From an uncultured Gemmatimonadales bacterium (lineage in GTDB: Bacteria > Gemmatimonadota > Gemmatimonadetes > Longimicrobiales > Gaopeijiaceae): a DNA stretch of 64,000 bases. Below the pieces are notes generated by a model that saw nothing but the letters and a program-made list of their open reading frames with translations, made no database searches and was not told the origin of the DNA. Below, piece after piece: positions 1 to 11,706 of the stretch. The position numbers and the translations under genes are program-made. The stretch lies in assembly GCA_963809895.1 (NCBI GenBank), contig CAWELD010000003.1, positions 1-64,000 of the forward strand, written 5' to 3'. Each line of letters begins with the position of its first letter. Position 1 is the stretch's first letter.

Positions 1-1091
1 GGGAGAGCTTCCGCCGCACCGCGGAGACGGCCGGCGCGGCACGGGAGGAGACCCTTGCCGCCGCCCGGCTCTCCGTCGCCCTGGGCACGGTCAACGGGCT
101 CACCCGTACAGCCGGAAACCTGCTCCTGACCTACATCGGGTGGCGGATGATCCTCGGAGGCGGCCTCACGCTGGGGAGCTTCATCGCCTTCACGGCTTAT
201 CTCGGCCGGGTGCGGGGACCGCTGGCGAGCATCAGTTCGCTCTTCAGCGACTTTCAGCGTACGGCCATTACGCTGGACAGGGTGTTCGAGCTTCTCGATG
301 AGCCACCCGAGGCGGAGCCCACGCTCCTCTATGATCCGGCGTACGCGCCCGCGCCGGTCCAGTTCGACGGTTCCATCCGGGTGGAGAACCTGCGCTTCCA
401 GTATCGGAGCGATGGCTTCGCCGTGGAGATTCCCGACCTGGACTTTTCGCCGGGATCGGTGACCGCCCTGGTCGGAGAGAGCGGCTCGGGAAAGTCCACA
501 CTCCTGCGGCTGCTCGCGGGCCTCGAGTGCCCGACCAGCGGCGCGATCCGGTATGGACGCCATGCTCATGACACCCTCCCACTGCCGTCGATTCGCCGGA
601 CGGTGGCGGTGGCATGGCAGGACGCGGACCTGCTTCGGGGCTCGCTGAGAAGCAACATCGCCTACGGCGTCGATCAGGTCAGCGAGCAGCGCCTGCGAGA
701 CGTCATTCGGGTGTGCCAGCTCGACACGTTGGTGGACGATCTCCCGGATGGACTCGACACGCCGGTGGCGGAGTGGGGCGCGACGCTCTCGGGTGGCCAG
801 CAGCAGCGGCTGTCGCTCGCTCGGGCTCTCATTCGAGAGACCCCGGTGCTCCTGCTCGACGAGATCACCTCGAACCTCGACAGCGACACGGAAGCGGCGC
901 TCTTGGATGACCTGATGCCCTTCGTCCGCGGGACGACCGTGATCGTCGCCACCCATCGGGGTGCGCTGCTCCGCCACGTCGACCGCGTGGTGAAGATCGC
1001 GAGTGGTCGGCTGGCGTTGGTGGAGGACGGCGATCGTGCCGTGCTCCGAGCGGGCCCCCCGGATGCCCTCTCGTCGGCGGTGGGATCGTGA
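1..1091 (+). CDS. ABC exporter, fused TMD+NBD (5' end outside window); likely peptide exporter
   Basis: Frame open from position 3; TM segment (GGLTLGSFIAFTAYL), Walker A GESGSGKS, signature LSGGQ, Walker B LLLDE, H-loop ATHR; stop overlaps next start (GTGA). Confidence 0.93.
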   Translation, partial: ESFRRTAETAGAAREETLAAARLSVALGTVNGLTRTAGNLLLTYIGWRMILGGGLTLGSFIAFTAYLGRVRGPLASISSLFSDFQRTAITLDRVFELLDEPPEAEPTLLYDPAYAPAPVQFDGSIRVENLRFQYRSDGFAVEIPDLDFSPGSVTALVGESGSGKSTLLRLLAGLECPTSGAIRYGRHAHDTLPLPSIRRTVAVAWQDADLLRGSLRSNIAYGVDQVSEQRLRDVIRVCQLDTLVDDLPDGLDTPVAEWGATLSGGQQQRLSLARALIRETPVLLLDEITSNLDSDTEAALLDDLMPFVRGTTVIVATHRGALLRHVDRVVKIASGRLALVEDGDRAVLRAGPPDALSSAVGS

Positions 1092-1894
1092 TCGGCCCGC
1101 TGACCCCCACGGGCCGGCGGCTCGTCGCTGAGGGGGACCGCCGGGAGGTCCGTCTGCCGGAGCTCGGCCGGGAGCCGGGCCGTGGCCTGCCGCTGCCGAG
1201 GTCTCTGCTCCTGGGTGCGTTGATCCTTCTGGCTATCACACTCGTCGCGGCGGCCATGATCCTGCCAAGGGCGATGGTCCCAATGCGGGCATCCGGGACA
1301 GGATGGGTGGAGCCCGCGCGAACCGCGGTCATCCGGGCTCCTGAGGCCAGTGTCGTGACGCAGGTGTTGGTGGCAGCCGGAGCGACAGTGTCCGTGGGAC
1401 AGCCGTTGGTGCGCTTGGAGGTGTCGCCGAACGCCGAGGATCGGCGTGAGGTCGTCCTTCGGGCGCCCAGTTCCGGGGTGGTCCAGGCGAGCGATCCGAG
1501 GGCGCTGGCAGCTCTAGCCGGTCGTTCTCTCATGCGTGACGAGTTGATCATTCAGCTCGTGGATCCGTCGGTCTGGGAGGTCCACTTCTTCGTGCCTGCG
1601 CTGGCCGTTCGACAGATCGGGCTCGGTGATACGGTCCGCGTGGAGATCGAGGCTCTCCAGGGCCTCGTCGACGATGCCCTGCGCGCCGAGGTGACCGGGG
1701 TGGGGACCCGGCCGTCGGCCGCTCCTGAACGCGAGGGCCTCTTCGAGGTGGTGGCCGCCCTCGATCTATCGTCTGACCCGCAAGTTGGGCAGGTGCTGCG
1801 AACAGGCTTCGATGCGCAGGTGGAGCTGGTGACCGGACGTATCTCCCTCGCCGGTCAACTCAGGCGGTGGGTACATCAGAGGTTCGGTCCATGA
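1088..1894 (+). CDS. HlyD/membrane-fusion-type adaptor lacking the coiled-coil hairpin
   Basis: Single N-terminal TM, lipoyl half motifs VIRAPEASVV..V..G..V..GQPLVRL and VLRAPSSGVV, C-terminal LRTGFDAQVELVTG; coupled to the ABC gene. Confidence 0.8.
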   Translation: MIGPLTPTGRRLVAEGDRREVRLPELGREPGRGLPLPRSLLLGALILLAITLVAAAMILPRAMVPMRASGTGWVEPARTAVIRAPEASVVTQVLVAAGATVSVGQPLVRLEVSPNAEDRREVVLRAPSSGVVQASDPRALAALAGRSLMRDELIIQLVDPSVWEVHFFVPALAVRQIGLGDTVRVEIEALQGLVDDALRAEVTGVGTRPSAAPEREGLFEVVAALDLSSDPQVGQVLRTGFDAQVELVTGRISLAGQLRRWVHQRFGP

Positions 1895-2640
1895 CGCGAG
1901 AGGAGCTGCGCGACCGGCTGCGGGCTGCCGCAGGACACGGCGTACGCGTGGCCGTGGTCGACAGCGGGTGGGAGGGCGGGATCGTGGACCCTCGCGTGGC
2001 CCCGGTCGTGGAACCGGGATCGCCAAGTCACCGAACGGGGGGAGATGAGAATGGCCATGGCACCGCCTGCGCGCTGCGCGTGCTGCAGGTCGCGCCGGCA
2101 GCCTCCATCGTGCCTGTGCGCGTGTTCCAACGGGTGCTGGAGACCTCCGTGTCGCGGCTGTGCGAGGGCATTGTCGCAGCCCGCGATTGCGGCGTGCAGA
2201 TCATCAACCTGAGCCTCGCGACACACCGGTCCGACGCCATTCGACCGCTCTACCGCGTCTGTGAGGAGACGCGGCGCATGGGTATCGTGATCGTGGCGTC
2301 CGCCCACAACCGAGGCGGACGCGCCGTGCCGGCCTACCTGGAGCCCGTCCTCTCGGTCGAGTCCGGCCCGCAGACCGAGTTCCTGGATTTCACGTACGAG
2401 CCGGAGGCCGCCATCGAATGCACCGCCGCCGCGCATGGTGTTCCGACTACGGGTCCAGACGGGCAGGCGGTGCGAAGGTCTGGTACCAGCATCGCAGCCG
2501 CCACCCTTTCGGGGATCGTGGCCCGTCTGCTGGAGATCGAACCCGGCGGTCTCGACCACGTGCGTCGGCTGCTGGCACTGACCTCCAGTTCCAACCCGGG
2601 AGACCTGGCTGCCGCTCGCGACATGGGGGGTGCGCCGTGA
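1891..2640 (+). CDS. Small S8 (subtilisin-like) serine peptidase, no signal or propeptide; candidate leader peptidase
   Basis: Catalytic motifs VAVVDSG, NGHGTACA, INLSL, ASAHN, SGTSIAA; ATGA overlap with upstream gene. Confidence 0.9.
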   Translation: MTREELRDRLRAAAGHGVRVAVVDSGWEGGIVDPRVAPVVEPGSPSHRTGGDENGHGTACALRVLQVAPAASIVPVRVFQRVLETSVSRLCEGIVAARDCGVQIINLSLATHRSDAIRPLYRVCEETRRMGIVIVASAHNRGGRAVPAYLEPVLSVESGPQTEFLDFTYEPEAAIECTAAAHGVPTTGPDGQAVRRSGTSIAAATLSGIVARLLEIEPGGLDHVRRLLALTSSSNPGDLAAARDMGGAP

Positions 2641-3875
2641 GCATGGCCGAACTGAGGCGGCCGTTGCTCTTGCTGCTATGCGGGAGCCTTTTCGGCTGTG
2701 ACGCATCCGCCCCTGCCGACAGTGATTCCAGCAGGGGCTACGCGGACTGGACAGCGACAGAGGAACTCCGCCTTGGCTCCCTGGACGACTCCGTGTACAG
2801 CTTCGCACCGATCGGGGCCGTCGCCGTGGGACCAGACCGGACCATGTACACGGCGCATCCCCAGGAGCGGCTCATCCGACGATGGTCCGTGGACGGAGCA
2901 CCAGACGGCACGATCGGTGGCAGGGGCCAGGGCCCCGGCGAGTTTGCGAGTATCGGCGCCATCGGCTTCACCGGCGACAGCCTCTGGGCCATGGATCTCC
3001 AGGGCCAGCGCGTCACGTACTTCGATCTCACCGGCACCGTGCTCGGGACCACGCCTCTGGAGATCGACACGCGCGCCCAACTTCAGGACCTCAATGCGGG
3101 ACGCCCCTACCCCCTGAGTGTCCTACCGGACGGCACGTTCTACGGCAGGCAGGCCGGGCTCATCCCGCAGATCGCCGGCACGGACTCCACGCGGATCCTG
3201 CATCTCCACCTCGACGCGACCTCGGCCATCCTGGACACGCTCTTCGTTCAGGTGGTGCACCGACGGGACGCCCTGGCGGTGCAGTCCCCCACGAGCGGTG
3301 GGTGGCTCATGGGCGCGCAGCCCTACGCGGACGCACCTGTCGCGTCGGCGGAGCCGTCGCTGCAGGCCCTGCTCGTCGCCGAGCGGCCGAGCTACACCGG
3401 CAACGGGACGCCCACGTTCCGGGTCACGCGCATCTCCATGTCCGGCGACACCGTGTTCCACCGGACGCTGCCGTACGACGCCGAGGCCCTGCCCGCCGAG
3501 ATCGTCGACCGTGTCATCGCGGGGATGGTGAACCGATGGGAGGCTCAAGAATCGGACGGTGAGCCTGCGTCGGCAGCGGCACTGACCCGATTGGCGAGGG
3601 ACGCCCTGTATGCGCCGGCCTGGTATCCCCCCTTCTCGGCGGTGGTGCTCGGGCGCGACGGCACCATCTGGCTCCGGGGCGCCCACGCCACCGGCGGACG
3701 CATCATCTGGACCGTTCTGGACGCGGAGGGCCATCCGGCTGGCCGAGTAGACCTGCCGGCGAGCCTCCGGGTCCTTGTCGCCACGCGCGACCGCGTGTGG
3801 GGCGTGCAGTCTGACCGGCTGGGTGTGTCCTACCTGTCTCGGTTCAGCGTTGGACCCGAGGCCACCGACCCATAG
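2637..3875 (+). CDS. 6-bladed beta-propeller lipoprotein
   Basis: Lipobox-like LLLLCGSLFGC; IGGRGQGPGEF motif; C-terminal DGTIW..WTVLD..G..GRV.LP; GTGA overlap with S8 gene. Confidence 0.8.
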   Translation: MSMAELRRPLLLLLCGSLFGCDASAPADSDSSRGYADWTATEELRLGSLDDSVYSFAPIGAVAVGPDRTMYTAHPQERLIRRWSVDGAPDGTIGGRGQGPGEFASIGAIGFTGDSLWAMDLQGQRVTYFDLTGTVLGTTPLEIDTRAQLQDLNAGRPYPLSVLPDGTFYGRQAGLIPQIAGTDSTRILHLHLDATSAILDTLFVQVVHRRDALAVQSPTSGGWLMGAQPYADAPVASAEPSLQALLVAERPSYTGNGTPTFRVTRISMSGDTVFHRTLPYDAEALPAEIVDRVIAGMVNRWEAQESDGEPASAAALTRLARDALYAPAWYPPFSAVVLGRDGTIWLRGAHATGGRIIWTVLDAEGHPAGRVDLPASLRVLVATRDRVWGVQSDRLGVSYLSRFSVGPEATDP

Positions 3876-3919: not shown

Positions 3920-5171
3920 TTGGACCGTCCCATCGAGATCCGGCACGACGGGCACACGCGCCAGGTGCCGCGCGACAAGGTGTACTTCTCCTTTGGCGAC
4001 GGTCGGCTGAGCTACGATTGCCGGAACTGCCAGATGAATTGCTGCCGCCGGGGCTTCGGCTACTGGCTCAACACGGAAGAAGAGCGTCTTGTCCAACTCG
4101 AGCAGCGGCCGCACGCTCGGTTCTTCACCGAGCCGGGACCTCTGCCAGGCTACGAGAAGATGCACAATCAGCCACCGGCGTGTTTCTTCCTGACCGACGA
4201 CGGGCTCTGCGGCATCCATGTCAAACACGGTGCTACCGCAAAGCCTCTGACGTGCAGCTTGTTCCCCTTCAACCGCTTTCTGCTGGCGGACGATCACCTG
4301 ATCGTTGGGCCCAAGGCTGGACTCTGTCCATTGGAGATCATGCCGTCGGACGAGCGGAGTGCACTCTCCAAGCACGACGAGATCTTCGCCGTGATGGCCG
4401 AGCGGGGACTGGACCGCAGGGTCGTGGAGGGCAGGGGATTGCTCCCTGACGTGGGGCCTCTCGTCGACCTGGAGCGCCGGATTGTTCTGCTATCAGAGGA
4501 GTTTCTGGTTTCCGACACGCCGCTGCTGGACTTCATCGATCAACAGATTGCCATGGGCCGGACGGTGCAGGAGGCCGCCACCACTGGCCACGACGCGGGA
4601 GCCCGTCCTCGCCGCACGCGACCTTCTGCGGCATGCCGCCGAGGTCCTCGGTGTCGATCGGAAGGACGTCGAGAGCTTTGACCCCGATGTCCGGCGGGCC
4701 GTCGTGGCGCTGACACCGGCGGTCCGCTCAGCGCTCGTCTTCTACGCTCTGGCAGGCCCGAAGGCCTGGCAGGGAGGCCTGATCTCGCTGGACCGCGTTC
4801 CAGGCGCCATTCTGGCCGTAGCTGTTCTCGGCCAACTGGCGAAGCTGGCCGGCATGTCCTCGGTCACGGTGCAGACGCTCTGGTCTTTCTTCAAGGAATA
4901 CCGAGCTCTGGTCTGGGCCATTGCGCACCTGGACAGTATTCCCGCGTGGAAGCTCGATCTTGCCGAAGACCCTGTCTTCGTAAGGACGCAGCGCGCCACC
5001 GAGGGCGGATTCGGTGACGTCGCCACGACGATCCTCCCATCCCGCCAGCAGCGCAATCCCACGACCCTCCTCGAGGCGCTCCGCTCTGCCGGTCGGTCGG
5101 CCAGCCACGACCAACGGACCAGGCTGGCCAAGCTGGCGAGCAAGCGCATGTATGGGAAGGTGACCGTGTGA
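3920..5171 (+). CDS. YkgJ/FliB-like cysteine-cluster (CxxCxxxCC) protein, split by one +1 frameshift near 4572-4585
   Basis: CRNCQMNCC and CFFLTDDGLCGIH..KPLTCSLFPF motifs; GGAGG RBS before TTG; ORFs 3920-4681 and 4482-5171 join into one ~415-aa frame by removing one base. Confidence 0.78.
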
Positions 5172-5696
5172 ACGCCCGTGGAGCCAATCGGACCATCAGC
5201 CCTGCCTTGAGGTCAGGCGGGTCGGCGATGATTTGCGGTTTCCGCTCAGTCCCAATCCTGTCGACATCTCTCGTGCAACAGCGAGGAGTGCAAGACCGAG
5301 TGATGTCTCATCTGGATCCCTTCGACCTCTGTCCGGCATCCGTGCTGCAGGAGGTTTCAGAGGGGATGCCCCTGCATTGGGTTGTGATACCATGGCCGGG
5401 GTCGCAGGCAATGGTGCGGGAGACTCGGGCTAGAGGGTCACAGTGGTCGAGCCCTCGGCCTACCTGGGACGGAGGGGCCCGGTCTTGTTGATCACTCTAT
5501 TTGCTGCCGTTGTCGGCCTGCCCCCTGCGCTCCCAGCCCCTGATACGCTGGGTGCCGTTCTGAGAGTGAAGGAGGTGAGGGGCTTCGTGCTTCGACGTTG
5601 CTACCAGTTGCTACCAGCGGCTCCCGTGCCGCTCGCGCAACGCTGCGGATCGCACTCCGTTAGGGTTCGCGGTCACTCCCAAGGGTCTAGGCGCGC

Positions 5697-6227
5697 GTGC
5701 CGGGGGCACCGCCCAGGACCCGCGCGATCTCCCACCAGGGTCCAGTCCTCGCCGGACCTTGGGACCTTGTTGGGACTCGGGCTGTCAGCCGGTCGGCCGT
5801 ACTGGACGAGACCCCCATCCGTCTTGCCGCGAACTCGCGAGCCAGCCCGTGGATCGAGGTGACTCGATGCAGCGACACGACCTGGCTGCTGTTCCCTGAC
5901 GAGCGGGGCATGTGGCACGCCCGTCGTTTGACCAGCGAGGTCCAAGCCCTGCTCGCGTGCTGCGAGACGCCCACCCCACCATGGGCGATCACCGCAACTA
6001 TTGCCGCCGCCAGCAACACGGACCCAGAGGAGATCGGCCCTTGGGTGCGTGAGCAACTGGACGCACTTACGCAGGCCGGAGTTCTCATCTCGGAACGACT
6101 CGCGGATGCTCTGCCTGCGGCGGCCTGGGCCGAATCATGGAGCGGTGATGGCAACCGCGATTCGCGAGTGGGTCGGTCGTTGGATACGGGGCCGGCACTG
6201 CCCTCCAATAGCGGGCCGTTCTGGTGA
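5697..6227 (+). CDS. Putative PqqD/RRE-like (winged-helix) peptide-binding protein; start uncertain
   Basis: Strand-like WLLFPDERGMWHARRL followed by helix pattern EVQALLACC-ETP-WAITATIAA-PEEIGPWVREQLDALTQAGVL; sits directly before the precursor gene. Confidence 0.5.
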   Translation: MPGAPPRTRAISHQGPVLAGPWDLVGTRAVSRSAVLDETPIRLAANSRASPWIEVTRCSDTTWLLFPDERGMWHARRLTSEVQALLACCETPTPPWAITATIAAASNTDPEEIGPWVREQLDALTQAGVLISERLADALPAAAWAESWSGDGNRDSRVGRSLDTGPALPSNSGPFW

Positions 6228-6480: not shown

Positions 6481-6798
6481 ATGAAGAAGATCCGCTTGGA
6501 CTTGGAGTCGCTGAAGGTCGAGTCCTTTGTTACGAATCGTCCCTCTGGCGCTAGGGAAGGCACCGTCTATGGGATGGGGGCGAATACGTATTGTGACTGG
6601 ACCTGCAACGAAGTAACCCCAAGCTGTAACGGGGATCCGGGATGCATCTCCGATGTCGACGACACCTGCGACTGGACCTACCCCCAGGCTACTACGTGTA
6701 CGTCTCCATATGGGACCACGACGGGGGGCGAGACGGAGGACTGGACTTGCGAGCCTTGCGCTGCTTCATGCAATAGCGAGGGTTGTAAGACGGATTGA
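6481..6798 (+). CDS. RiPP precursor peptide (105 aa): pinensin-family-like leader plus Cys/Thr/Asp-rich core
   Basis: Leader MKKIRLDLESLKVESF...EGTVYG; 74-aa core with 10 Cys, 19 Ser/Thr, 13 Asp/Glu; purine-rich RBS (GGGAGAAACGAGG) directly upstream. Confidence 0.88.
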   Translation: MKKIRLDLESLKVESFVTNRPSGAREGTVYGMGANTYCDWTCNEVTPSCNGDPGCISDVDDTCDWTYPQATTCTSPYGTTTGGETEDWTCEPCAASCNSEGCKTD

Positions 6799-6941: not shown

Positions 6942-8705
6942 GTGCTGGTTTCGAACTTGTTGACGCTTCTTGCGGCGTTAGGGAGCCAGCACGCCGTGAC
7001 GACGGATACGTTGGGTTCAGTTCGCCGGGTGAGCGAGGCGCTTAACGACTACTATTACGAGACCGTGGTGGATCCGCCGGGTAAACGGCATCTCCTGACC
7101 TCTCGTGACGCGGCGGGGGCGAGGCTCGGATGGATCTGCAGCCCCGACACTGGGGTTGGCTCGTGTACGGGGGGGGATTGGGTGCGGGGGAAGTGCCCAG
7201 CCGATGTCCGCTGTCATCCGCCGAATGATGAGCTCCTCGATGTTCTGGCGAGGTCCGCTGCGGAGAGTCCTGGGTCGGGGTTTGTCACCGGACAGGCCGT
7301 CTTCGCCTTTGCTCGATTTGGGCAACACTTGAAGGCCATGGGCGTTGCCGAGAGCTGCGAGGCGGCCGCCTGGTGGTGTGACGCGCTTAGGGGCCATGTC
7401 TACCGAGCCGTTGAGCGGGTCCAGGACGCAGAGGCGAGCTTCCGGCGCTCATTGTCGGTGGCTCCTGACTCCATCATCTGCCGCTTCAGCGATGCGACGT
7501 GGCTATTCGGATCGTGGTCTTCCCGGGCGCACCCCGTCGATCCGCCGGAGGCGTGGACGGAGTGGTCCGAGCAGCCGTGTGCGGTCCGGGCAGCGGTGTC
7601 CGACACGATCTGGTGGCTGGCTGACCCGCTGTACGTCGTGGAAGGCAATGATCGATGGGAGGAGCAGGTCGACCGAAGTCTGGCGGCCCGGTGGCGTCTC
7701 GAAGCCTCCATTGACGTCACGCTTCGGCCGGAGGTGCCGCTGCCTTGGCGAAACACGTATTGGGCGCGAGTGATTCGTCGAGGGCCTTGGGACTCGTTCG
7801 AGTACCTCAAAGTGGCGAGGGCCAACGGCATTTCCGCCCTCCTCTGGACCAGCAAGAAGGCCGCCCGCTACCACTTCGTGCCGGACTTCGAAGGCGAGGG
7901 CTTCTCGCACCCGACCTGGCGCCTCGAAGCCGACTTCGACGACGAGGGCTACACGCCGCCCTATGCGGCGTTCTACGCCCTCCCGATCCAGATCGCCCGC
8001 TTCCGCAAGCCCGACTCCACGGAGGACGCCTCCGCGTCTGGCACCATGCGCGTGGCCACCGCGAGCAGCGCTCTGGGCACGCCCATCGAAGCTGCGGTGG
8101 ACTCCGCCCACCTCATTCTCACCGACGCACCCGGCAGCTTCCCCCTGCACCTGGAGGCGCCTTTCCACGAGGGTAAGACGGTCTACTTGGCCGAGACCCC
8201 GCCGAAGCGGTACGTGACGAGCCTCGAGGTACTGACCCCGGCCGGCATCGGCTGGCACCGGGAGATGCTGGAGCCCATGGAGCTGAATGGCCCGGGGCTC
8301 TCGGACATCCTGCTCTACGAGCCGCTGGGCTTCGCCACGCCCGACTCATTGCTCGCGGCGACCTCGATGATGCTGGGCACGACAGAGCTCGAAGACGTGC
8401 CGGAAGTGGGGCTCTACTGGGAGGTGTACGGCGCGGAGGCGCAGCAGCCGCTGCAGTTCCAGCTCCGGCTGGAGCGAGAGGGCGGTGGCTTCCTGGACAA
8501 GCTGCAACGGCTGCTGCCGGGGGGTCCAGAGGAAGCAACAGGTACGGTGATATGGAACGAGACGGCGACGGGTCCGGTATCGGCGAACTCCATCGTGCTG
8601 GACCTCAGGACGCTCGATTCTGGGAGCTACACGCTGGTGCTGCGGGCCCGGTGGGAGGGGCAGGATGCGCCGGTGGAGAGCCGGCGTAGACTCCTGATCC
8701 GGTAG
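6942..8705 (+). CDS. Secreted hypothetical protein with Cys-rich/TPR-like N-half and Ig-like C-terminus
   Basis: 587-aa ORF with signal-like N-terminus; motifs WWCDALRGHV, WWLADPLY, GLSDILL, GLYWEVYG, LDSGSYTLVL. Confidence 0.7.
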   Translation: MLVSNLLTLLAALGSQHAVTTDTLGSVRRVSEALNDYYYETVVDPPGKRHLLTSRDAAGARLGWICSPDTGVGSCTGGDWVRGKCPADVRCHPPNDELLDVLARSAAESPGSGFVTGQAVFAFARFGQHLKAMGVAESCEAAAWWCDALRGHVYRAVERVQDAEASFRRSLSVAPDSIICRFSDATWLFGSWSSRAHPVDPPEAWTEWSEQPCAVRAAVSDTIWWLADPLYVVEGNDRWEEQVDRSLAARWRLEASIDVTLRPEVPLPWRNTYWARVIRRGPWDSFEYLKVARANGISALLWTSKKAARYHFVPDFEGEGFSHPTWRLEADFDDEGYTPPYAAFYALPIQIARFRKPDSTEDASASGTMRVATASSALGTPIEAAVDSAHLILTDAPGSFPLHLEAPFHEGKTVYLAETPPKRYVTSLEVLTPAGIGWHREMLEPMELNGPGLSDILLYEPLGFATPDSLLAATSMMLGTTELEDVPEVGLYWEVYGAEAQQPLQFQLRLEREGGGFLDKLQRLLPGGPEEATGTVIWNETATGPVSANSIVLDLRTLDSGSYTLVLRARWEGQDAPVESRRRLLIR

Positions 8706-8898: not shown

Positions 8899-8942
8899 GC
8901 TTTGCAAGCAGGAGGTCACGGGTTCGAATCCCGTTGGCTCCA
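8899..8942 (+). mobile_element. Displaced 3' half of tRNA-Ala(TGC); putative att site at the end of an integrated island
   Basis: GC-TTTGCAA-GCAGG-AGGTC-ACGGGTTCGAATCCCGT-TGGCTCCA gives anticodon loop, T-arm and 3' acceptor strand; no matching 5' acceptor or D-arm upstream. Confidence 0.85.
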
Positions 8943-9096
8943 TTTAAGTTAACAGAACGCGTAATCTCTACAGTGCACGTATCGTGCACTCGCGGACCTC
9001 TTTCGCCGGTGCCATGTGCGGTGGTTCGGTGGGAAGGGCAGGAGTTCCAGGACGCGTGGGTCGAATCCTGCTATGCCAGTGATCCGAGGGTGGGGC

Positions 9097-9565: not shown

Positions 9566-10480
9566 TCATCGCGGCACATACACCACGGTCCGGATTTGGG
9601 GCTCGCGTCCCAAGATCACGTTGAACAGTCCCACTCCGCGGTTGCCCACGCCGAATACCGGTATCACTACCGAAATTCCGTCACCATCGATCGACACACG
9701 GGCTTTCCCGACTACAACGACGAAGGCTGGCAGATCCGTGCACGCGACCTGCGGAGAATCTGGACCTGGAGGAGTCTCTAACCCCGGCAAGCGCAGGCCC
9801 GCGGCCGCAAAGCATTGGAGCGCAGGGAGGAGGTCCGCCGCCTCCACCCCTTGGGCCCGCAGTCCACGGCGCCTCTCCTCCAAGACGCCCCGAGGTAGCC
9901 TGACGACGCTTGGTGCCCGGAAGGTCTCCGCCAAGACAATCGCGGGTTGCACGTCCACGGAGACCTGGGGCAAGCTCAACGCCCTCGCGACCAGGGTCGC
10001 GATCGTCGCGAGATCCTCGATCGAGGTCAGTCCTCCACCCCCTCTTCCGTCGGCCACAACCCATCCGGATCGGGTGACCTGACCCACGGCCCAACTGCCG
10101 TCACGAGCCCGCCTGAGAAGTCGCCACTCCTCACGATAGGACACGCTTCCGTCGTATACTTCCAGCCATACCCGACCCTGATCTTCGTTCTGGGTCAGGG
10201 AGTCCACGACGAGGAACTTTGTCGGACGGGTCGCAGGCTCGAGACAATTCCGAATGACGCGCTCGGAGAGCAGCTCGGGCAGCTCGCGCGAGGATCCGAG
10301 CAGTGAATCAAGACTGCATCCTTCGACAGCGAAGCCCTCGTCCTCGAACTGGGCGCGGAAGGACACCACGGTCTCGAGCAACTCGACATCTCCGGATCCC
10401 GTCGCCTGTCCGGAGGCGGGATGGGGTCGGCCAGCGAGACCGCTCAGAACCAGCGCTACGGAGAGGAGTAGTCGATGCAC
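9566..10480 (-). CDS. Secreted hypothetical protein
   Basis: 304-aa ORF, signal peptide HRLLLSVALVLSGLAG; overlaps end of upstream gene. Confidence 0.6.
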   Translation of the reverse strand: MHRLLLSVALVLSGLAGRPHPASGQATGSGDVELLETVVSFRAQFEDEGFAVEGCSLDSLLGSSRELPELLSERVIRNCLEPATRPTKFLVVDSLTQNEDQGRVWLEVYDGSVSYREEWRLLRRARDGSWAVGQVTRSGWVVADGRGGGGLTSIEDLATIATLVARALSLPQVSVDVQPAIVLAETFRAPSVVRLPRGVLEERRRGLRAQGVEAADLLPALQCFAAAGLRLPGLETPPGPDSPQVACTDLPAFVVVVGKARVSIDGDGISVVIPVFGVGNRGVGLFNVILGREPQIRTVVYVPR

Positions 10481-11706
10481 GAGTCGGGCCCATAGTTCAA
10501 GTAACTGTACGGGGCGGTCTGGTATTGTAACCCATAGGGCGGTACGTTGATGTCATCGTTGGGTCCATGATCGGGACTGAATACATGCATGGCCTCGTGA
10601 AGGAGCGAGTTGGCCAAGTCGTACATCGGCGCGTTCCCTGCTAACACGTCGTCCATGTACGACGCGTCGATGTGGATTATCCCGGTCAACCCGTCGTAGA
10701 GGGCCATGTGCGTCTGCTCCTCTTCCCCTACGTCGGTACTGCCCTGTTGCACCATGCCGCTGCCCAGGAGTGATTGAAAGGTGTCAAGAGCCTGCTGGCA
10801 GGCATCTGCCACCGTCGCATCGCTGATGGCAGAGAAGTCGGCCAGGAACCCCTCCAAGGCGGCGTCAACAAGGCTATCCTGCTGTTCGGTCATAGGGATG
10901 ACGCAGGTCGAATCAGCTCTCGGGTCGCACTCGGGTTCGGGATCGGGATTCGGGTCTTCCCCCGATCCGCCGCCAGAGCTGCCGCCACCGGGATCAGTGC
11001 ATTCGGTGGCACGTGCGATCCGGGTATTCGGCGGAGCTTGCTTCCCGATCAGCTTCCCGCCCAGAGGTCGGACGGTCGGCGACTCCACCTGAGTACAACC
11101 CCCGCCATTACCGTTGTAGCCACAAGAGAGGACATACAGGACATCGCCATTCTCATCCGCCATGTAGTAGCAATAATCATAGTGATCGTAAGGATCCCAG
11201 TTGAACTCCGCGTGCGCGATGTCCAACCACACCACGCCCGATGGGTACACCGAGGGGCCGGCTCCCGAGCCAAAGGACACCCCGCCCCGCCACCCGTTGC
11301 CGGCTGCGTGGTCCCCATTGCCTGGCGCCCAAGAGATCCGATCGAGTGCGACCTCGCGGTCCGACGCGGTAACATTGCAGGTGCCTCGATATAGGACGGC
11401 ACCGCCGCGGACACGATAGGACACAGAGAACGGGTCGGGTTCTTCCGCGCCTGCGGGGGCGATCGTCCGCTCAATAAGGAGATAGCGATCGTCAGGCAAT
11501 GCATACTCGAGTAGACATTGCCCAACGGCGAGGCTCTCAAGCACTGCTTGAACCTCTTGGAGGCCGCTCGCAGTGCCGCGGGCGCGATCGCCAGGCGGCA
11601 AGACGTCTGAAGCTCGGGGAACGGTCGCTAGCTCGGGTGAATCGGCGCTCGGTTCGAGAGGAGTGCGGGACACATCCCCACAGGCTGTGAGCACGACGGC
11701 AGCCAA
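10456..11706 (-). CDS. Lipoprotein with C-terminal HExxH zinc-metallopeptidase-like domain; start uncertain
   Basis: Lipobox VVLTAC; Gly/Pro linker PGGGSSGGGSGEDPNPDPEP; SLLHEAMHVF. Confidence 0.68.
   Translation of the reverse strand: MAAVVLTACGDVSRTPLEPSADSPELATVPRASDVLPPGDRARGTASGLQEVQAVLESLAVGQCLLEYALPDDRYLLIERTIAPAGAEEPDPFSVSYRVRGGAVLYRGTCNVTASDREVALDRISWAPGNGDHAAGNGWRGGVSFGSGAGPSVYPSGVVWLDIAHAEFNWDPYDHYDYCYYMADENGDVLYVLSCGYNGNGGGCTQVESPTVRPLGGKLIGKQAPPNTRIARATECTDPGGGSSGGGSGEDPNPDPEPECDPRADSTCVIPMTEQQDSLVDAALEGFLADFSAISDATVADACQQALDTFQSLLGSGMVQQGSTDVGEEEQTHMALYDGLTGIIHIDASYMDDVLAGNAPMYDLANSLLHEAMHVFSPDHGPNDDINVPPYGLQYQTAPYSYLNYGPDSCIDYSSP

Follow-up and report, generated by a model that had tools for sequence, protein, structure and literature searches.

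A probable class I lanthipeptide precursor with a pinensin-type leader in a decayed gene cluster of a Gemmatimonadales bacterium

An open reading frame of 105 amino acids (P0001, 6481..6798) encodes an acidic, cysteine-rich peptide in which the tripeptide DWT occurs three times. This raises the questions of what kind of precursor P0001 is, whether three DWT modules are its design, and whether its product is still made. The window analysed here is a stretch of 64,000 nucleotides at the start of contig C3 of the genome G000, which cuts its first gene, an ABC exporter; features lie on the forward strand unless stated otherwise. The preliminary description had located DWT at aa 39, 64 and 87 (GACTGGAC at DNA positions 6595, 6670 and 6739) and had counted 10 Cys, 19 Ser/Thr, 13 Asp/Glu and a single Lys in the core. 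The reading frame and these positions were correct, and the counts were reproduced on recount. The core (aa 32-105) has 74 residues, no Arg and a net charge of -12. Three DWTs appeared at a frequency of 1e-5 among 200,000 composition shuffles of the core, and any tripeptide occurred three times in 4.6% of 200,000 such shuffles. The self-alignment score of the core was 61 (shuffle mean 33) and was reached by 0/400 shuffles. The gene is under purifying selection: in comparisons with four homologues, its uncorrected pN/pS was 0.27-0.45, although pS was close to saturation. A sigma-70-like promoter was not found for the precursor, which carries no evidential weight either way. We put the probability at about 75% that P0001 is a LanA-type, class I lanthipeptide precursor with a pinensin-type leader, whose modifying genes are gone locally except for the tail of the cyclase gene.

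A protein search with P0001 found two close homologues, and a profile of the three sequences gave 99 matches, 14 of them at E <= 1e-10. These 14 were aligned with P0001 and P0002 as a family of 16. DWT occurred three times only in P0001, twice in two members and once in three, and was absent from ten. The triple DWT was therefore rejected as a family motif (1/16); as judged from this alignment, it is peculiar to P0001 and incidental. The core columns kept in 16/16 members were T36, C38, T41, C42, [ST]48, C49, C55, T66, [ST]72, C73 and C90, that is, five Ser/Thr and six Cys with no Asp/Glu. Other Cys columns were partly kept (C63 in 15/16, C97 and C102 in 13/16 each, C93 in 5/16), as was [ST]96 (14/16), and the best Asp/Glu columns were position 39 (14/16), position 87 (13/16) and position 64 (10/16). 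Trp was found at position 40 in 3/16 and at position 88 in 3/16, and solely position 65 was aromatic in every member (9 W, 6 Y and 1 F), which argues against three DWT modules as the design of the peptide. Conservation indicates that the family constraint is a Ser/Thr-Cys scaffold with one middle aromatic residue at position 65. The Trp residues of modules 1 and 3 would then be lineage-specific extras, the family-wide constraint falling on the middle aromatic residue only.

The members also resembled each other in size and composition. The precursors were 103-119 aa long with cores of 72-88 aa in 16/16, and the length varied mostly in the linker before module 3. Every core had 9-13 Cys, a net charge of -9 to -19 and at least as many Ser+Thr as Cys (19 vs 10 in P0001). 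Ser/Thr stood immediately before Cys 81 times against 33 expected. The peptide had also been described as unlike cationic lantibiotics, which is true of P0001 but not distinctive. The control for acidity consisted of 83 weaker profile matches, 75 of which had a core that could be delimited; P0018 (an unrelated repeat protein) and P0025 (a frameshift fusion) were left out. In this control, which leans acidic because it was found with an acidic query, 71 of the 75 other pinensin-type-leader cores were net negative and one was net positive. The control cores had a median of 8 Cys, with at least 10 Cys in 30 of them, and the acid density of the family was about twice theirs (-0.16 vs -0.09 per residue). 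The precursor was present in 2/19 other genomes of the same genus and in no other genus among the 313 genomes of the taxonomic family (E <= 1e-8). Named relatives belong to Longimicrobium and the Atlas neighbours to Gemmatimonadota, which makes Longimicrobiales within Gemmatimonadota the likely order of the organism.

We then compared the three modules. Module 1 (aa 36-55, 6586..6645) follows the pattern T-x-C-[DE]-x-T-C-x5-[ST]-C-x5-C, module 2 (aa 63-73, 6667..6699) the pattern C-x-[WYF]-T-x5-[ST]-C, and module 3 (aa 85-102, 6733..6786) the pattern [DE]-x-T-C-x5-[ST]-C-x4-C. The earlier claim of internal duplication was upheld for modules 1 and 3 but not for module 2. In P0001, the alignment score of modules 1 and 3 was matched by 0/5000 shuffles; their profile-profile comparison (hhalign) gave a probability of 81% with E 1.2e-5, and their family mean score, with the three closest sequences excluded, was 31.2 against 23.5 for shuffled sequences (0/200). 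When module 2 was compared with the other two in P0001, 128/5000 and 50/5000 shuffles reached the score. Its family-mean scores were slightly above those of shuffles, and the profile-level probabilities were 2.8% and 0.7%. The common unit of modules 1 and 3 is [DE]xTC-x5-[ST]C-x4/5-C, and TC-x5-[ST]C-x3-6-C occurred twice in 8/16 members, once in 7/16 and not at all in 1/16. The similarity of modules 1 and 3 and their shared unit suggest that an old two-fold internal duplication is likely. The family is not built from three tandem DWT modules. At the DNA level, the repeats in the gene were only 12-13 nt long, which rules out a long tandem duplication. Because the repeats are short and modules 1 and 3 are unlike at synonymous sites, nothing points to recent duplication or conversion.

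The leader (aa 1-31, 6481..6573) ends in GTVYG before the invariant Met32, where cleavage is predicted. It scored 22.6 bits on the pinensin-type leader model NF038180, below the cut-off of 24. Of four homologues, P0003 (28.6 bits) and P0005 (31.3 bits) passed the cut-off, and the two others scored 23.4 and 15.7. The leader also has columns that are invariant in the family. The proposed pinensin-type leader was supported overall, whereas the score of P0001 below the cut-off counts against it.

The class of the precursor was examined through its neighbours in related genomes. A LanB domain was found in 4/313 genomes of the taxonomic family, including exactly both precursor-bearing genomes of the same genus; the two among the 19 other same-genus genomes that have LanB are the identical pair that has the precursor. 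On contig C16 of G003, the order is LanB-N (PF04738, E 1.6e-50), LanB-C (PF14028, TIGR03891), LanC (PF05147), the precursor directly after LanC, and a TPR-like gene; this complete adjacency on a single contig was seen in G003 only. In G006, contig C48 carries a TPR-like gene, an unannotated ORF, LanB-N, LanB-C and LanC up to the contig end, and contig C292 carries the precursor 157 bp from its start, followed by TPR-like, ABC and S8 genes. Since the ends of C48 and C292 do not overlap, LanC and the precursor are presumed to be adjacent in G006. The locus L028 has the order LanC tail, precursor, ABC. In G250, the TPR-like, HlyD, S8 and propeller genes are linked to a trio of split LanB and LanC, which comes after the propeller gene. 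In G239, a different pinensin-type precursor accompanies such a trio with ABC, HlyD and S8 genes. Two loci depart from this pattern: at L029 (P0013), no LanC match was found within 3.1 kb upstream of the precursor, and at L030 a TPR-like gene occupies the upstream side instead.

Active-site-type motifs were present in LanB and LanC of G003 and G006, and LanC of both had WCHG and CHG, which we take to be zinc-ligand motifs. LanC of the relatives also had about 200-250 extra C-terminal residues. A low-confidence model of this tail from G003 (mean pLDDT 43) had three strands followed by three helices, and the top five Foldseek matches were RREs of lasso peptides (probability 0.91-1.0, E 0.08-0.26). 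According to this model, the tail is likely to be an RRE-like domain. No radical SAM domain (PF04055) was found on G003:C16, G006:C48/C292, G250:C70 or G239:C7. Since split LanB and LanC go with the precursor and no radical SAM domain lies on those contigs, P0001 is most likely a class I lanthipeptide precursor, and the earlier multi-ring lanthionine reading gains support. In class I chemistry, tRNA-Glu-dependent glutamylation and elimination convert Ser/Thr to Dha/Dhb, and a zinc cyclase adds Cys thiols.

Two further observations concern the number of precursors per cluster. The near-identical family precursors P0012 and P0105 each have a longest contig of 21,738 bp, which suggests two precursor copies in one cluster, as the window once had. 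The Longimicrobium-like contigs L031, L007, L014 and L034 carry pinensin-type precursors in arrays, with 4 to 11 different ones per array and, at L031, 11 in 10.5 kb.

Several genes lie upstream of P0001 in the window, among them an ABC exporter truncated by the contig start (3..1091; 63% identical to its counterpart in the G006 cluster), an HlyD-type adaptor (1088..1894; PF13437) with homologues in the LanB clusters of G250 and G239, and a small S8 protease (1867..2640; PF00082) with 53% identity to the S8 proteases of the G006 and G250 clusters, QhpE-like below the cut-off (NF049966, 111 bits, cut-off 165). These are followed by a six-bladed propeller protein (2418..3875; weak PF17170), probably a lipoprotein with its true start near 2640, whose homologue lies directly before LanB in G250. 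Downstream of P0001 is a gene for a TPR/GWxTD-like secreted-looking protein (6942..8705), which had no Pfam or NCBIfam match. Its identity to the gene that follows the precursor is 46% in G003 and 41% in G006, and it recurs among the Atlas neighbours. Such a gene is beside the cluster also in L027, L030 and G250, and twice in G006. Copies were noted at L024, L026, L027, L030, L064 and L081; distant copies were present in 3/3 Longimicrobiaceae genomes tested, with no adjacent precursor in the 4.5-kb loci.

A FliB/YkgJ-like CxxCxxxCC protein (3920..5171; weak NF038110) is encoded between the propeller gene and the precursor. Its gene appears frameshifted near 4587 in the window, at a site that no contig spans, and the two halves correspond to a single open frame of 489 aa in G367. 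It was found in 3/300 other genomes of an order sample and adjoins a precursor only in L027, directly upstream of it, and in run X3. This rare protein is a possible tailoring enzyme; as a core tailoring enzyme it was rejected, as it was not found in G003 or G006 with this query and the G367 contig has no LanB or LanC.

Between these genes and P0001, the locus is broken twice. What remains of a second precursor, its final 10 codons and stop, lies at 5271..5303, with 94-95% DNA identity to the metagenome locus L027 on both sides. Relative to L027, 468 bp are missing at 5268/5270 (L027 position 289 jumps to 758), comprising the rest of the second precursor and its upstream region. Next come a spacer and the 5' remnant of a first TPR/GWxTD-like gene (5304..5575), at the end of which the identity to L027 stops; from the break at 5575/5576 the sequence runs on into LanC-side DNA. 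The contigs of run X3 were unbroken at both sites, and one continued past 5575 like L027. A 3' remnant of the LanC gene containing only the C-terminal RRE-like domain lies at 5844..6227 and aligned with the tails of G003, G006 and L028; tblastn with G003 LanC aa 543-628 matched 5844-6101 with 31% identity over 86 aa (E 9e-9). A stand-alone RRE gene at 5697-6227 was rejected, as tblastn and the tail alignment identified this region as the LanC tail. Judged by the layout of G006, the DNA lost at the second break would have held the greater part of the TPR-like gene, the two LanB genes and the cyclase domain.

In G000, which is 95% complete, neither PF04738 nor PF14028 was matched; the one trace of LanB was a fragment of 77 aa at C3:658786, and P0001 was the only intact precursor found by a leader HMM. 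A second ruined cluster was seen at C3:650897-668392, where a precursor start (first six codons) lies beside a TPR-like fragment, with a LanB N-terminal fragment, a cut ABC gene, S8 and propeller genes, broken by several IS elements. A stand-alone LanC-like gene at C3:2724797-2725895 is unlikely to be a trans-acting cyclase; it is split between two frames, starts like a twin-arginine signal, scored 86 where the LanM model requires 304, and lacks an adjacent precursor. The earlier reading of P0001 as a core-bearing precursor was sound in that it is a RiPP precursor, but it overlooked the deletion of the synthetase genes here. From the sequence, the locus has apparently decayed and P0001 has been orphaned by deletion, and the mature peptide is probably not made in G000.

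Near the cluster, a tRNA 3' half that reads as Ala-TGC was observed at 8899-8943, 190 bp after the TPR-like gene; ARAGORN detected no complete tRNA in the window and listed no Ala(tgc) for the genome. The half tRNA resembles an att remnant left by an integrated island, of which the cluster may be a part. A 416-aa ORF of lower GC on the reverse strand (10456-11706) had no Pfam or NCBIfam match; it starts like a lipoprotein, has an acidic Gly/Pro linker and carries a near-terminal HEAMH zinc-protease-like motif.

Alternatively, the same lanthipeptide might still be made in G000, either by a LanB/LanC set that precedes the contig start and was left unassembled, or because the breaks are assembly errors. 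Contig C3 opens inside the ABC gene, within the cluster, and with 95% completeness a second enzyme set could be unassembled; the enzyme trio of G250 sits after the propeller gene. The precursor, S8, HlyD and TPR-like genes are all open in the window, and none of the runs from this strain reaches across the breaks (best share 0.14). However, the LanC tail is at the exact position of LanC in G003 and L028, so the local enzyme set was lost. Moreover, the second cluster (C3:650-668 kb) is likewise fragmented among IS elements, and no LanB was found in G000. We consider continued production unlikely, and loss of the enzymes remains our preferred explanation.

The composition of the cores would also suit a secreted, metallothionein-like peptide with few or no rings that binds metal through free Cys thiols and carboxylates. 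The 9-13 Cys and the strong negative charge in all members agree with this, Cys38 has no upstream Ser/Thr partner in 15/16, and such a peptide would not need the lost enzymes. On the other hand, the invariant Thr/Ser and the adjacent dehydratase and cyclase genes would be superfluous for thiol binding, and the close Cys spacings CC, CxC and CxxC were depleted in the family. We therefore regard a largely unringed metal-binding peptide as improbable; metal binding by the ringed product is possible.

The preliminary description had also offered a multi-core peptide. In such a precursor, the three modules would be released as individual short peptides, on the pattern of graspetide or cyanobactin cassettes. 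The three-fold spacing in P0001, the likeness of modules 1 and 3, a protease in the cluster and the variable Gly/Thr-rich linker ahead of module 3 would fit such a precursor. However, there is one leader and one core (72-88 aa in 16/16) with no repeated recognition site or cleavage motif, and module 2 is not a copy at the profile level. The number of modules, whose variation among homologues had been proposed as a check, was constant in the 16 members. The ATP-grasp domain PF21068 was matched in 0/5 genomes, and no control genome matched it either. A multi-core precursor is very improbable.

Ranthipeptide or QhpC-like chemistry, in which a radical SAM enzyme would link Cys to Asp/Glu, perhaps with Trp modification, is the least probable reading: the core is acidic and Cys-rich, positions 39 and 87 are mostly Asp/Glu, and a QhpE-like S8 protease and an RRE-like domain are close by, but the contigs with the cluster carry split LanB and LanC instead of a radical SAM gene (nearest PF04055 match in G000 about 80 kb away), a CxxxCx[FYWH]C motif was absent from the window and the six fetched regions, no Asp/Glu column is invariant, the RRE is the LanC tail, and the Trp is swapped for Tyr or Phe in 7/16. 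Asp/Glu acceptors of ranthipeptides lie at +3 or +4 from Cys. In the family of 16, there was no Asp/Glu enrichment at +3 (24 vs 28.8 expected) or +4 (26 vs 28.4 expected) relative to Cys. Asp/Glu was in excess at +1, +8 and -3, which weighs against the class I lanthipeptide reading.

For the class I lanthipeptide reading, we infer the following course of chemistry, cleavage, export and activity in an intact cluster. The LxLESLKVESF leader would be recognised by the RRE-like domain and by leader-binding sites, and the glutamylation and elimination proteins of the split LanB would dehydrate the conserved Ser/Thr. LanC would then form thioethers from an upstream residue to a downstream Cys. The S8 protease would cut after GTVYG, before Met32, and export would be the task of the ABC/HlyD pair. 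The G006 exporter is a 599-aa open frame that apparently starts at the membrane domain, and the S8 protease is therefore the likely leader peptidase. The product would be a single, strongly anionic peptide of 74 residues with about nine partly interlocked rings, for example T36-C42, S48-C55, S57-C63, T66-C73 and T89-C97, and possibly a free Cys38.

This ring pattern was predicted with the rule of PMC11251773 in C-to-N order. For P0001 it gave nine bridges and left Cys38 free; across the family it gave 8-12. The accessible text of that source reports 92/100 known patterns correct and states that the rule is weaker on complex peptides. Under this rule, the invariant T41 and [ST]72 were unpaired in P0001. 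As these are unpaired and the Ser/Thr-Cys adjacency is unusual for rings, the topology is uncertain. Going by conservation, T41-C49 could take the place of the T46-C49 given by the rule, and S96-C102 that of its S99-C102. It is unlikely that so anionic a product acts like cationic lipid II binders. Our best guess for its activity is metal or protein binding, with the TPR/GWxTD-like neighbour as candidate partner. More broadly, and tentatively, the family may represent giant anionic class I lanthipeptides with 72-88-residue cores that are fully cyclised into 8-12 interlocked rings, above the reported maximum of seven, made by a split LanB and a LanC-RRE fusion with a TPR/GWxTD-like export partner; such a peptide would be a folded mini-protein that binds a metal or receptor via the invariant aromatic residue and a free Cys38, not a membrane-active antibiotic.

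The nearest known system is that of the pinensins of Chitinophaga pinensis, which shares the leader type (NF038180, where P0001 scores just under the cut-off), the split LanB (accessible text of 10.1101/2020.03.13.990614 and PMC9680876) and a separate LanC. The pinensin LanB proteins are PinB1/B2, and the pinensin enzymes are described as not confirmed in the accessible text of PMC9680876. Pinensins have two methyllanthionine rings (PMC10125368, accessible text), whereas the core of P0001 has 74 aa, 10 Cys and a charge of -12. In further contrast to the pinensin system, LanC carries a C-terminal RRE-like domain, and S8 protease, HlyD and TPR/GWxTD-like genes accompany it. Geobacillin I, elgicin and a predicted Tannerella peptide are also polycyclic lanthipeptides with overlapping rings. 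The accessible text of PMC11251773 gives seven bridges as the known maximum and eight as predicted for the Tannerella peptide, which has a modular tandem duplication; the same rule gave 8-12 for our family. According to that text, the survey was limited to ORFs of <= 100 aa, so the family precursors fall outside it.

The uncharacterised Longimicrobium precursors with pinensin-type leaders have the same leader and Cys/Thr-rich, mostly acidic cores, but the family of 16 has its own fixed scaffold and about twice the acid density, and in G000 a single intact copy instead of an array. For L. terrae, three predicted lanthipeptide clusters have been reported, none matched to a known RiPP (PMC7291104). 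QhpC/QhpD/QhpE and ranthipeptides are similar in having an acidic Cys/Trp peptide and, for the former, a small S8 protease like QhpE; they differ in that the present cluster is without a radical SAM enzyme and the family without invariant Asp/Glu acceptors. In titles and abstract openings, a scope outside which lay most subscription journals and all supplements, no publication describing the family was found. We place P0001 in an uncharacterised family of precursors that are long, anionic and most likely of the class I lanthipeptide type.

The copy in the window is mainly a pointer to this family, as its own enzymes appear lost and its triple DWT is incidental. Precursors longer than 100 aa are overlooked by the length filter of at least one survey, as stated in its accessible text. 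For the many uncharacterised Gemmatimonadota precursors that carry pinensin-type leaders, the cluster of G003 offers a concrete, clonable example. Full cyclisation of the family, if it occurs, would push the lanthipeptide ring count beyond seven and provide a LanB/LanC pair able to handle long acidic substrates, which would be useful for engineering.
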